NCBI GenBank assembly: GCA_963770795.1
Contig: CAVYQR010000006.1
Location: 70,264 to 134,263, forward strand
DNA from: an uncultured Chloroflexia bacterium
GTDB taxonomy: Bacteria > Chloroflexota > Limnocylindria > Limnocylindrales > CSP1-4
DNA: 64,000 nucleotides
Direction of reading: 5' to 3'
The position numbers and the translations under genes are program-made. Of this stretch, positions 30,130-43,336 are shown one piece after another (position 1 is the first letter of the stretch; each line of letters opens with the position of its first letter). The notes below the pieces were generated by a model. It was not told where the DNA came from and searched no databases. It was given only the letters and a program-made list of their open reading frames with translations.

Positions 30130-30277
30130 TGGGCACTCGCCAGCGGATCGAGCCGCAGAGGGGTGGGGGCTTCCTCCGTCGGGCGGCGAACGGTCCTCAT
30201 CGCCCGCCTCGCGGGCATCTGGCGCTGGAGCGGCGAGCAGGCCAGACGAAGGCAGCCGGCTCGGTGGCGAGTGCCCA
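30130..30277. repeat. Long palindromic element A (148 bp)
   Basis: 13-bp perfect terminal IR TGGGCACTCGCCA / TGGCGAGTGCCCA, nested GAGCCG/CGGCTC stem; followed by GGTCG. Confidence 0.65.
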
Positions 30278-38459: not shown

Positions 38460-39902
<1,443 letters not shown>

Positions 39903-39992
39903 CGGCTTCGGGTCTGCTCTGCTGCGGCTGCGGGGAGGAGAAGGGTACCAGCGGATCTCACCGACGGGTCGCCGCGCCACCCCGGGCAGCGT

Positions 39993-40721
39993 TCAGCGTT
40001 CTGCCCCGATACGCGAGCGTTTCCCGTCCAGCACGACCCAGAGCAGGGACGGACCGGGCCACGGGGCCGTGCCCGTGAGGGCGGCGAGGGCGTCGGCGGG
40101 GTGAGCGGGGTAGGCGACGCGCAGCTGGCGCTCGAAGGTGATCGCGACATCGCGCGTCGCGCGCGTGCGCCGCACGACCAGGAGGCGGCTGATCGCGGGC
40201 TCGTCGCCGAGATGGGGCCAACCGTCCCAGCTTGGCAGCGATGCGGCCTTCTCCGTGGACCACCGGACGAGCTGCTCGAGGCGGCGCAGCTCCGACTGGA
40301 GCTCAGAGGCGAGGAACACGTGCGAGGTGGCGTCGTGCAGACCCAGATCGATCCAGCCGCGGCTCGGCTGCCGGACCGCGAGCTCGGTGAAGGGCGTCCA
40401 GCGAGGATGGAGCGGCGCGAGGAGGACCTCCAGCATCCGTGCCTGGTGGCGGTCCCGGAGCGCAGGTCCGGTGTTGGGGTAGATCCGCGTGTGGAGGTCC
40501 GCCCCGAGCGCCGAGGCGAGTCGCTGGTACGTCGCGATCGATGGCGCTTCCGAGCCACCCTCGATGCGGGCGAGGAAGCGGAGATCGACCCCAGACGCAC
40601 GGGCGAGCTGCGCCCGCGACACGCCCGCGTCCTCGCGAAGCCGCAGCAGGTCGCCGGCCAGCGTGCGGTGGCGCTTCGCCGAGGCGGTGGCAATGGCCTT
40701 CTCGAACTTCATGGTGGTCAC
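39993..40721 (-). CDS. XRE-type HTH fused to a PD-(D/E)xK/Vsr-like nuclease-fold domain
   Basis: LLRLREDAGVSRAQLARASGVDLRFLARIEGG (HTH_XRE), then TE...RGWIDL...ASELQSE. Start 40721 (GTG) or 40712 (ATG). Confidence 0.65.
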   Translation of the reverse strand: MTTMKFEKAIATASAKRHRTLAGDLLRLREDAGVSRAQLARASGVDLRFLARIEGGSEAPSIATYQRLASALGADLHTRIYPNTGPALRDRHQARMLEVLLAPLHPRWTPFTELAVRQPSRGWIDLGLHDATSHVFLASELQSELRRLEQLVRWSTEKAASLPSWDGWPHLGDEPAISRLLVVRRTRATRDVAITFERQLRVAYPAHPADALAALTGTAPWPGPSLLWVVLDGKRSRIGAER

Positions 40722-40797
40722 AGGCAGAGTGAAGCGGCCGGCGCTTACCCGCGGCTTGTTGATGCGCGCGCTCGCTCGTCTTGCCCGGCCGCGGCGG

Positions 40798-40952
40798 TGG
40801 GACTGCCAGTCATCGCTACGTCGTGCCTTGGGTCGTCTCCTGTGACTGGTGGTCATGGGGGAGGCCCCGATCCGGCCGGAGATGGGCCTCTCCGATGCCT
40901 CGGAGTCACAGGACAGCGTTGCGATCCGCTGCGGCTATGACTGGCAGTCCCA
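40798..40952. repeat. Long palindromic element B (155 bp)
   Basis: 16-bp perfect IR TGGGACTGCCAGTCAT / ATGACTGGCAGTCCCA; nested TCCTGTGACT/AGTCACAGGA (40838-47 / 40904-13) and GAGGCCC/GGGCCTC; followed by GGTCG. Confidence 0.75.
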
Positions 40953-40957
40953 GGTCG

Positions 40958-41051
40958 GCGCGACCGGGGCGCCGGAGACGGGCGCCGCGCGACCGGGGCG
41001 CCGGAGACGGGAGCTGCGCGAGGGCACAGGACGGGCGCTGCGCGAGGGCAC
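40958..41051 (+). repeat. Two pairs of short direct repeats
   Basis: GCGCGACCGGGGCGCCGGAGACGGG at 40958 and 40987; GCTGCGCGAGGGCAC at 41013 and 41037. Confidence 0.7.
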
Positions 41052-41121
41052 GGAAGGCTGCACTTTGGTTCGGCGGTTGCGCCCATGCGGGGGCTGCGGG
41101 TATCCTTCGCGCACCCGTCGC

Positions 41122-41367
41122 ATGGCGGGCCAGCAGGAGTCGGGTCGCTTGGACTTCTCCCAGGGCCGCAACCGCCGCATCGTCGCCGTCGTCGTGACGG
41201 CTGATGGACGCCGCGTGAACGTGCCCCTGCGCGACCTGAACACCAGCCGCGTATCCCTTCTCGATCTTCTTCGCTCGCTCCAGCTTGGGCTTGAGAGCCT
41301 TCTTGGCCTCCTCATTACCGGCTCCCGGCGGGAGAACGGAGGAACGCGGAGGGACGGCAGCCGCTGA
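41122..41367 (+). CDS. Putative ilvB leader (attenuator) peptide, 81 aa
   Basis: IVAVVV block, then 11 Leu in 20 codons (7 CTT, 4 CTC); TATCCT -10 at 41101-41106; terminator 25 nt downstream. Confidence 0.55.
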   Translation: MAGQQESGRLDFSQGRNRRIVAVVVTADGRRVNVPLRDLNTSRVSLLDLLRSLQLGLESLLGLLITGSRRENGGTRRDGSR

Positions 41368-41392
41368 GGCGCCGACCACCGACAACCGAAGG

Positions 41393-41419
41393 GACCCTCG
41401 CCGGGTGGCGAGGGTCTTT
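41393..41419 (+). terminator. Attenuator-type intrinsic terminator upstream of ilvB
   Basis: GACCCTCGCC-gggt-GGCGAGGGTC-TTT, between the leader ORF and the ilvB RBS. Confidence 0.75.
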
Positions 41420-41467
41420 GCATGTCCGGAGGTCGCGGGACCCAGCGGACGGAGAGGGACAGGACGG

Positions 41468-43336
41468 ATGACGATGACGAAGGACGAGCCGCCGGCCGGG
41501 CAGGCCGGCGGCTCGCCGGGACGTCGGAGCCACGTGCCGGGTGACGGCACGGCGGCGGCGGACGCCATCGAGCAGGCCCGCCGGCAGATGCTCCATGACG
41601 TACGGAGCAGGAAGCGGACCCGCATCGGCGCCGACGCGCTCATGGAGGCGCTCATCCACCAGGGCGCGGACACGCTCTTCTCCTACCCGGGCGGCGTCAT
41701 CCTCCCGATCTACGACATCCTCGGGGACTACCCCGAGATCCGCCACGTCCTCGTCCGGCACGAGCAGGGCGGCGCCCACGCGGCCGACGGCTACGCCCGG
41801 GCCAGCGGCAGGGTGGGTGTCTGCATGGGGACCAGCGGTCCCGGTGCCACCAACCTCGTGACCGGCATCGCCACGGCGCAGCTGGACTCCGTGCCGATGG
41901 TCGCGATCACCGGCAACGTGCCCGGCTCGCTGATCGGCAAGGACGCGTTCCAGGAGATCGACATCACCGGCATCACGCTGCCGATGACGAAGCACAACTA
42001 CCTGGTCCGCAACGCCGACGACATCCCTCGCGTCATTGCCGAGGCCTTCTACATCGCGAAGCACGGGCGTCCCGGGCCTGTGCACGTTGACCTCACGAAG
42101 GACGCCCTGCAGCAGGAGACACGTGCCGAGCATCCCTCGCTCGAGCAGGTGGTCGCCGGCCTGCCGGGCTTCCGGCCCAACACCGAGGGCCATCCCAGGC
42201 AGCTGAAGCTGGCCGCCCGGGAGATCGCACAGGCGAAGCGCCCGCTGATCCTGGCAGGACACGGCGTGCTGATCGCCGAGGCCTGGGACGAGCTCAGGGC
42301 CTTCGCTGAGAAGGCGCAGATCCCGGTCGCCTGGACGCTCCTGGGCATCGGCGCCATGGACGAGGATCATCCGCTGGCCTACGGCTACATGGGGATGCAC
42401 GGCTGGAAGCACGTGAACCGCGCGATCCAGTCGGCCGACCTCCTGGTTGCCATCGGGATGCGGTTCGACGACCGGGTCACCGGCAGCGTCAAGACCTACG
42501 CCCCGTACGCGCGGATCATCCACGCGGACATCGACCCGGCCGAGATCGGCAAGAACGTGGCGGTCGAGATCCCGATCGTGGGCGACGCGAAGAACGTCAT
42601 CGTCGGCCTCACGAAGCTGGTCCACCAGGTGGAACCGGCGGCACGCGCCGAGTACCACGCCCAGCTGGCCGAATGGCGCCACGAGTCCGAGGAGTCGTCC
42701 TGGCACGGCTCGGGCGGCTGGAAGGAGGGGGTCCTGTCCGCAGACTTCGTGGTGAGCCGGATCGGTGAGCTCACCGACCACGTCGCCACCTACGTCGCGG
42801 ACGTGGGCCAGAACCAGATGTGGCTCGCCCGCTACACCAGGTTCCGCCGGCCCCACAGTCATATCAGCTCGGGCGGCCTCGGTACGATGGGCTTCGCGGT
42901 CCCGGCCGCGATGGGCGCCGCGCTGGGCAACCCGTCCGCGGAGACGTGGGCGATCTGCGGTGACGGCGGCTTCCAGATGACCAGCCAGGAGCTGATGACC
43001 CTCGCCGCGGATCGCATCCCCGTGAAGATCGCGCTCCTCGACAACAAGAAGCTGGGCATGATCCGGCAGTGGCAGGAGATCTTCTACGCGGAGAACTACC
43101 ACTCCTCGCACCTGCCGGGCCCGGACTTCGCGAAGCTGGCCGATGCCTATGGCATCCCTGCCTTCAAGGCGACCACGACCGGCGAGGTGGACGGCGCGAT
43201 CAAGGCGGCCCAGGCCGTCGACGGTCCAGCGCTCATCTGGTTCGAGATCGAGCAGGAGCAGAACGTGTTCCCGATGATGCCGGCGGGCAAGGGCCTGTCC
43301 GACCTGATCGAGACCTGGGGAGGGCCGGAGGAATGA
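41468..43336 (+). CDS. ilvB: Acetolactate synthase large subunit
   Basis: YPGG, RHEQG, TSGPGATN, FQEID, DVGQNQMW, SGGLGTMGF, GDGGFQMT. Confidence 0.96.
   Translation: MTMTKDEPPAGQAGGSPGRRSHVPGDGTAAADAIEQARRQMLHDVRSRKRTRIGADALMEALIHQGADTLFSYPGGVILPIYDILGDYPEIRHVLVRHEQGGAHAADGYARASGRVGVCMGTSGPGATNLVTGIATAQLDSVPMVAITGNVPGSLIGKDAFQEIDITGITLPMTKHNYLVRNADDIPRVIAEAFYIAKHGRPGPVHVDLTKDALQQETRAEHPSLEQVVAGLPGFRPNTEGHPRQLKLAAREIAQAKRPLILAGHGVLIAEAWDELRAFAEKAQIPVAWTLLGIGAMDEDHPLAYGYMGMHGWKHVNRAIQSADLLVAIGMRFDDRVTGSVKTYAPYARIIHADIDPAEIGKNVAVEIPIVGDAKNVIVGLTKLVHQVEPAARAEYHAQLAEWRHESEESSWHGSGGWKEGVLSADFVVSRIGELTDHVATYVADVGQNQMWLARYTRFRRPHSHISSGGLGTMGFAVPAAMGAALGNPSAETWAICGDGGFQMTSQELMTLAADRIPVKIALLDNKKLGMIRQWQEIFYAENYHSSHLPGPDFAKLADAYGIPAFKATTTGEVDGAIKAAQAVDGPALIWFEIEQEQNVFPMMPAGKGLSDLIETWGGPEE

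Follow-up and report, generated by a model that had tools for sequence, protein, structure and literature searches.

A predicted XRE helix-turn-helix and PD-(D/E)xK-fold fusion protein encoded in the variable ilvB-leuC spacer of an uncultured Chloroflexia bacterium

The subject of this analysis is a small gene in a 64,000-nucleotide stretch (the window) of the genome of an uncultured Chloroflexia bacterium. It lies in the spacer between leuC and ilvB, and its product joins an XRE-type helix-turn-helix (HTH) domain to a C-terminal domain that is predicted to adopt the PD-(D/E)xK nuclease fold. The explanation that we favor, with confidence somewhat above even, is that this is a self-contained accessory gene encoding a self-repressed, HTH-tethered and probably active nuclease that is carried as cargo. 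The protein would bind, through its HTH, tandem RTAAGY repeats that overlap its own putative leaderless promoter, and binding at this position would lead to self-repression. The same HTH would bring the nuclease-fold domain to DNA, where the C-terminal domain may act as a divalent-metal-dependent nuclease or at least as a metal-dependent nucleic-acid-processing module. Its role could be that of a fused repressor-nuclease in defence or addiction, that of a homing-like selfish gene, or that of a local regulator. The first of these, a defence or addiction-type repressor-nuclease, is a possible form of the favored explanation.

The gene and the two domains of its product occupy the following positions.

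39993..40721, minus strand: gene for the XRE-HTH and PD-(D/E)xK-fold protein, delimited by its open reading frame, the lengths of its homologs and an upstream motif.
40491..40652, minus strand: XRE/Cro-C1-type HTH domain, residues 21-74 of the 239-aa form, from matches to Pfam HTH_31 and HTH_3.
39996..40463, minus strand: C-terminal domain of about 155 aa with a restriction-endonuclease-like core, from an AlphaFold2 (AF2) model, Foldseek and residue conservation.

The open reading frame ends with a stop codon at 39993-39995 and probably starts at the GTG at 40721, yielding a protein of 242 aa that begins MTTMKFEK; the ATG at 40712 is an alternative start that would give 239 aa. More than 1,400 homologs were found, with lengths clustering around 242 aa and an N-terminus of the form MxTxxFE. 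The GTG is favored because of this family N-terminus and its 6-nt distance from a -10-like box. A longer reading frame of 287 aa from the ATG at 40856 begins within a palindrome, exceeds the family length and is almost certainly too long. The N-terminal domain scored 38.7 to 39.1 bits against Pfam HTH_31 (PF13560; gathering cut-off, 27) and 33.2 to 33.7 bits against HTH_3 (PF01381; gathering cut-off, 23), and Pfam HTH matches were obtained for 61 of 63 family members. By sequence as well as by fold, it matches ClgR, DdrO, SinR and the controller proteins of restriction-modification (R-M) systems. No model in Pfam, NCBIfam, PHROGs or PADLOC matched the C-terminal domain; the matches in NCBIfam, PADLOC and PHROGs were confined to the HTH, and a family profile searched against the sequences in PDB retrieved HTH proteins only. 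We found no paper describing an XRE-HTH fusion to this nuclease-fold domain.

The fold of the C-terminal domain was addressed by structure prediction. A full-length AF2 model built from a shallow alignment of 41 close homologs gave a predicted local distance difference test score (pLDDT) of 50 to 68 for this domain and only HTH matches in Foldseek, and it was superseded. A second model was computed for the C-terminal domain alone, using 63 diverse sequences down to 32% identity, and reached a pLDDT of 95.4 and a predicted template modeling score (pTM) of 0.90. Its elements follow one another in the order helix, three strands, helix, strand, three helices and beta-hairpin, the first six forming an alpha-beta-beta-beta-alpha-beta core (helix 8-18, strands 25-33, 39-47 and 52-59, helix 65-77 and strand 93-101 in fragment numbering). 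The model thus contains the four-stranded mixed sheet with flanking helices that is the criterion of the PD-(D/E)xK superfamily. The best Foldseek matches in PDB were NucS (2vld), the R2 retrotransposon endonuclease domain, YaeQ, Can2, XisH, McrC, Bax1, MunI, SfsA and BstEII; their scores were weak, with a best E value of 0.013, probabilities up to 0.97 and template modeling (TM) scores of 0.32 to 0.44. In the viral structure library BFVD, the best match was an MmcB-like protein (E value of 1.1e-3, TM score of 0.49 to 0.53), and further matches were Mrr-domain proteins, exonucleases, proteins annotated as PD-(D/E)XK nuclease, and Cas4. Members of the PD-(D/E)xK superfamily accounted for most of the best PDB matches and for every named BFVD match near the top. 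The structural matches are weak, and membership is therefore assigned at the superfamily level only; at that level, we consider the predicted fold to be sound. An earlier reading of the window, made from the letters alone (here, the sequence-only reading), had proposed a restriction-like fold for this domain, and the AF2 model and its Foldseek neighbors, their weak scores included, bear this out.

Conservation across the 63 sequences outlines a site that resembles the active site of this superfamily. The conserved residues of the domain are D87, Q90, E110, D122, E137, Q/H/E139, S140, E146, R150 and K155. Three of them, D87, D122 and E137, are invariant (63/63), E110 and K155 are kept in 62 of the 63 sequences, and S140 and E146 in 61. 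The position of the canonical lysine holds Q in 31 sequences, H in 19 and E in 11, and K in none. In the predicted strand register of the AF2 model, D122 on strand 2 lies opposite E137 on strand 3 across the hairpin, and K155 sits on the helix following strand 3. Pairwise identity is higher in the C-terminal domain core (0.50) than in the HTH (0.40). Active enzymes without the canonical lysine are familiar from BglII (E-x-Q) and BamHI (E-x-E). Migration of the lysine to the second core helix, termed PD-EXX-K, is a described active variant of the superfamily, and non-catalytic homologs that only bind DNA exist as well (PMC3424549). Judged by this conservation pattern, nuclease-dead is probably not the better reading of the domain. 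The sequence-only reading, which noted a glutamine at the lysine position, had considered that state; with D122 and E137 invariant, E110 and K155 present in 62 of 63 sequences and the pattern matching the PD-EXX-K variant (PMC3424549), the label is unwarranted. The motifs from which that reading had started, TE(110), GWID(122) and E(137)LQS(140), are present and fall on conserved columns, and the XRE HTH that it had named is confirmed by scores above both Pfam cut-offs.

Immediately upstream of the gene lies a motif whose architecture recurs at paralogs.

40728..40759, minus strand: family-specific promoter/operator-like motif ACAAGC-N5-GTAAGC-N9-TTCACT.

The motif ends 6 nt before the GTG at 40721, a spacing that fits a leaderless transcript. 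Paralogs from different loci carry RTAAGY-N5-6-GTRAGY, followed after 8 to 12 nt by a TTCAMT box and after a further 6 to 8 nt by the start codon. A relaxed version of the motif was found in 15 of 39 non-redundant upstream regions, compared with 17 matches in the whole genome, and a stricter version matched the genome once, at 40728-40759. When the window's own genome was scanned with the stricter motif for a regulon, no second site was obtained, and the motif was absent from the leuC and ilvB promoters. A scan of 39850-41500 for sigma-70 promoter and terminator consensus sequences returned no match. From its sequence and position, we infer that 40728-40759 is the gene's own promoter with an overlapping candidate operator; hence, the gene would be self-regulating. 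The sequencing runs that contain this stretch are DNA metagenomes only, in which its share is low.

The family to which the protein belongs is narrow. A profile search with the C-terminal domain retrieved 390 clusters at an E value of 1e-3 or less among 1.84 billion representatives of 50% identity clusters, and in most of the clusters listed the domain occupies approximately residues 88 to 245 of a protein of about 250 aa. These results describe a narrow family of fixed architecture. Of 301 genomes sampled from the phylum, 7 contained the domain, six of the seven belonging to the window's own taxonomic family, and the database names of homologs point to a lineage in Chloroflexota. The gene is single-copy in its own genome (3.19 Mb, 7 contigs), and genomes of the genus carry from 1 to 10 family members. 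Paralogs occupy at least seven further neighborhoods, each conserved across species, among them ppk/CHAD with an ABC transporter, a seven-transmembrane (7TM)-BTAD protein with a cyclase, an aminotransferase and extracellular polysaccharide (EPS) clusters; paralogs also lie next to leuCD. No partner gene was common to these neighborhoods. Neither a toxin gene nor a restriction or methylase gene was found beside family members, the neighbors being leuC and ilvB here and ppk/CHAD, a cyclase, an aminotransferase or EPS genes at the paralogs. Decayed copies with stops, frameshifts or split frames made up about one-tenth of the loci and occurred in several relatives. In three EPS/glycosyltransferase clusters (L059 6935-7603, L061 6960-7535 and L066 5828-6538), a gene of 191 to 236 aa without a Pfam match comes after the XRE paralog, in the same orientation.

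The gene was then placed in the context of its locus. It lies between leuC (38460-39902, minus strand) and ilvB (from 41468, plus strand), and the open reading frame, palindrome, tandem repeats and leuC/ilvB placement given by the sequence-only reading were all found in the sequence. Within the genus, a homolog stands directly upstream of leuC, on the same strand, in 12 of 29 relatives, with the proteins 47 to 85% identical and the leuC genes 84 to 97% identical. All 11 of the occupied loci that were extended have ilvB on the far side, in the same arrangement as in the window (leuC <- XRE ... -> ilvB). Four relatives, including the closest one (G043; leuC 97% identical), have an empty spacer of about 0.5 kb in which leuC and ilvB are adjacent, and in G043 the segment corresponding to approximately 39956-41060 of the window is replaced by about 100 bp. 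Other inserts are present in at least 11 relatives, and in eight of these a GAF-membrane gene adjoins leuC. Where genomes with the GAF-membrane gene were re-checked, ilvB was found on the same contig 4.4 to 16 kb away, which corresponds to an insert of 4.4 to 16 kb, and no homolog was located within about 1.4 kb of ilvB. Metagenomic contigs contain GGDEF/EAL genes, or EAL genes and a transposase, in the spacer beside the XRE gene. With these three states across the genus, the ilvB-leuC spacer is a hot spot for variable cargo, within which the gene behaves as a dispensable item.

Position in a control region also invites a regulatory explanation, namely, that the protein is a local transcription factor of leuCD and/or ilvBNC in which the nuclease-fold domain serves only as a dimerization or a ligand- or metal-sensing module. 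The constant arrangement at the 11 extended loci is consistent with it, as are a 4-nt overlap between the XRE stop and the leuC start in one metagenomic contig and the placement of paralogs in conserved neighborhoods by other metabolic or regulatory genes, as would be expected of paralogous regulators; DNA-binding-only members of the superfamily are also known (PMC3424549). The comparison of relatives speaks against such a function, however. In the closest relative, which is without the gene, the ilvB leader is nevertheless about 97% identical and the upstream block of leuC shows only a few changes. No copy adjoins leuC in at least 15 members of the genus, nor does one lie within about 1.4 kb of ilvB in those re-checked. 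Furthermore, the only genomic instance of the family motif is the one at the start of the gene, with none at either the leuC or the ilvB promoter, the leuC-linked copies do not form one clade, and conservation of the acidic triad and K155 across paralogs fits a shared chemistry better than varied ligand sensing. We regard a local regulator of these genes as unlikely.

Repeated occupation of the same site could also be explained by a homing-like selfish nuclease, which would be guided by its HTH, cut empty alleles and be copied into them by repair. Homing endonucleases of the PD-(D/E)xK type are known. Close relatives differ in whether the gene occupies this spacer, it comes with a putative promoter of its own and without a partner gene, and the decayed loci, about one in ten, would suit a selfish element. 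In a maximum-likelihood tree, the leuC-linked copies did not form one clade, and the copies at the ppk site were likewise non-monophyletic; at least three changes were forced by well-supported branches, whereas the large clade with most of the leuC-linked copies was not resolved. For most of these copies, one origin followed by losses is possible, and gene conversion among paralogs would yield the same tree. In addition, the distance from the gene stop to the leuC start ranges from about 55 to 540 nt, hence there is no fixed insertion point, and a target site was not identified. Homing in this strict sense appears improbable to us. A broader proposal, in which the family comprises lineage-specific, free-standing, HTH-guided PD-(D/E)xK endonucleases that persist in bacterial chromosomes in a homing- or addiction-like manner, repeatedly taking up a few intergenic hot spots such as the ilvB-leuC spacer, and repress themselves via tandem RTAAGY sites on a leaderless promoter, is speculative, and we give it similarly little credence.

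Several observations weigh against a self-repressed nuclease carried as cargo. In 12 relatives, the gene is located in the ilvB-leuC control region, and a metagenomic contig shows its stop overlapping the start of leuC by 4 nt; a link to the branched-chain amino acid genes is therefore possible. Each group of paralogs keeps its neighborhood across species, a pattern that suits resident regulators better than mobile genes. The upstream motif is a direct repeat, whereas the sites of XRE dimers are usually inverted repeats, and it may alternatively be a promoter read by a dedicated sigma factor. As to the C-terminal domain, the canonical lysine is never present, the clustering of E110, D122, E137 and K155 is derived from strand register rather than from measured distances, and the structural matches are weak, with no PDB match at an E value of 1e-3 or less and TM scores of 0.3 to 0.44. 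Nuclease activity, DNA binding and autoregulation are predictions only.

The sequence-only reading had treated the gene as part of a palindrome-associated selfish module, conceptually like REP-RAYT (repetitive extragenic palindromes with their RAYT proteins). The palindrome, and the tandem repeats next to it, were followed through the genome and its relatives. The features concerned are as follows.

40780..40974, unstranded: copy of a dispersed palindromic intergenic repeat, core 40798-40952 with 19-nt terminal inverted repeats.
C2:56819, C1:18692, C1:40630, C7:108958, C2:847675, C2:13507 and C3:110612: the other copies of the repeat (L003 to L009), from a genome search.
40958-41021, unstranded: tandem duplication, 29 nt x 2.2, 94% matches (Tandem Repeats Finder).
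41006-41051, unstranded: tandem duplication, 24 nt x 1.9, 95% matches (Tandem Repeats Finder).

The palindrome (40798-40952) is 155 bp long and lies 77 to 86 bp upstream of the gene start. Its outer arms of 19 nt are 95% complementary and its inner arms of 41 nt are 76% complementary; the fold z-scores were -6.3 and -7.6, and none of 200 shuffled sequences folded as well. The genome contains seven full copies and one truncated copy, 93 to 99% identical, all of them intergenic and beside unrelated genes. To the left, six of the seven other copies have approximately 65 additional bases in common, and in some the shared sequence also reaches further to the right; therefore, the repeat unit measures 230 to 290 bp, and the window copy consists of the hairpin core only. 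Rfam had no match in the spacer or in the seven other copies, and a tRNA scan of all eight repeat loci found none. Set against the criteria for miniature inverted-repeat transposable elements, the family has 19-nt terminal repeats and eight near-identical copies; there is no visible target-site duplication, and in most copies the conservation continues past the termini. No link to a transposase was found for the family. Among 40 genomes of the genus, the repeat is present in five, with one copy each in G043, G044 and G047. The eight copies seen here, compared with one in each of these relatives, suggest recent amplification in this genome.

In a module of this kind, the protein would bind or cut the 155-bp hairpin and mobilize it in trans, as RAYT proteins do for REPs, with one gene serving the eight copies. 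The gene is situated about 80 bp from one of eight near-identical (93 to 99%) copies, which suggest recent spread, and G047 keeps gene and palindrome at the same site, the repeat being at the orthologous position and 78% identical. This is, however, the only relative with the repeat by the gene. No homolog was found near the other seven copies in the window's own genome, nor within about 1.5 kb of the copies in G043 and G044, and G043 does not have the gene at its ilvB-leuC site. Conversely, the repeat was not detected in 35 of 40 relatives from the genus, although most of those tested carry 1 to 10 homologs; relatives with 5 to 10 homologs have no such repeat. The repeat is present on one side of the gene only, no target-site duplication was seen in the aligned copies, and the window copy lacks the conserved left flank that six of the seven others carry. 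This distribution largely refutes the idea that the protein mobilizes the hairpin, which we consider very improbable, and it is because of the distribution of repeat and gene that the REP-RAYT analogy fails. A single-copy gene here, synteny in 12 relatives and homologs without flanking palindromes are, moreover, observations of the kind that the sequence-only reading had named as refuting its own proposal. The palindrome is a separate dispersed repeat and not part of the gene's unit.

The two tandem duplications overlap (40958..41051). They are not conserved in G047 and are absent from G043, where a different threefold tandem repeat is found near the spot; they are local duplications. Just outside the right end of another copy of the palindrome (L007, C2:847597-847675), there is a short tandem duplication, CGCCACTCCT in two copies, as at the window copy, and slippage beside the hairpin may be a recurring feature. 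A second long hairpin in the window, at 30130-30277, does not belong to this repeat family and has one other copy (C1:692837-693038) of about 70% identity.

The left edge of the spacer is marked by the following feature.

39903..39953, minus strand: conserved upstream block of leuC, consisting of CGCTGGTACCCT (extended -10-like) and the 5' leader CCGCAGCCGCAGCAGAGCAG, from conservation in the genus.

Nearly all members of the genus retain this block, regardless of whether their spacer is empty, occupied by the XRE gene or filled with another cassette, and it forms the left edge of the variable spacer. It is presumably the leuC promoter. On the other side, the ilvB leader region (41074-41467) is about 97% identical in G043, and the frame of the leader peptide is kept in G047. 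A small gene on the minus strand at 41074-41330 was considered and is better explained as this conserved leader region on the plus strand. In G043 (L022 2550-2660), GGTTGCGCCCATGCGGGGCCTGC, which covers the presumed -35 element of the leader promoter, is present in three tandem copies.

Both the PD-(D/E)xK superfamily and the XRE HTH are well known, and this fold is commonly found fused to DNA-binding domains. New here are a family without any existing model, its fixed XRE fusion, a site with Q, H or E in place of K and a lysine on the helix, the lineage-specific expansion and a promoter-like motif of its own. It is a new protein family rather than a novel type of mobile element. Should the domain be confirmed, the superfamily gains a family outside all current models, characterized by a fixed XRE-HTH fusion and a site of the form E-D-E(x)Q/H/E...K, which has multiplied up to tenfold within single genomes of an uncultured lineage of Chloroflexota from soil and sediment. 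An HTH-tethered nuclease could then turn out to be a sequence-directed nuclease or a new single-gene module for defence or addiction, and with a short, recognizable candidate operator it would be easy to test. The locus itself is also clarified, in that the hairpin belongs to a separate young repeat family and the spacer is a hot spot for cargo; neither of them is a novel regulatory device of branched-chain amino acid synthesis.

Compared with the PD-(D/E)xK superfamily, the C-terminal domain shares the predicted alpha-beta-beta-beta-alpha-beta core, an invariant aspartate on strand 2, an invariant glutamate on strand 3 and a further acidic residue on strand 1. The conserved lysine on the second core helix is shared with the PD-EXX-K variant (PMC3424549). 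It differs in having no match to a sequence model and best Foldseek E values of only 1e-3 to 1e-2 with TM scores of 0.3 to 0.53, in the Q, H or E at the canonical lysine position, and in about 80 additional C-terminal residues (forming three helices and a beta-hairpin that bears a WPG motif) that are specific to the family.

The N-terminal domain resembles the XRE regulators ClgR, DdrO and SinR and the R-M controller proteins C.BclI and C.AhdI in sequence (E value of 6e-8 to ClgR) and in fold (TM score to target of 0.77 to 0.84). As in autoregulated XRE repressors, a conserved site is predicted to overlap the gene's own promoter. Those regulators, in contrast, are small or carry other C-terminal domains, and the candidate operator here is a direct rather than an inverted repeat. 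R-M controller proteins are encoded beside restriction and methylase genes and antitoxin-type XRE proteins beside a toxin gene, whereas no such partner is present here.

With REP-RAYT, the locus has in common a single-copy gene beside one copy of a short dispersed intergenic palindrome. However, the protein has a different fold without an HUH/Y1 domain, the palindrome flanks the gene on a single side, its presence in a genome does not go together with that of the gene, and it has only eight copies. A further point of comparison is provided by Rpn (YhgA-like) proteins, the recombination-promoting nucleases of enterobacteria. To our knowledge, there is no detectable sequence relationship between Rpn and this family; Rpn proteins have no XRE HTH and differ in domain order and taxonomic range. 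What the two have in common is their genomic setting, with several stand-alone PD-(D/E)xK paralogs per genome, located at chromosomal sites and without partner genes.

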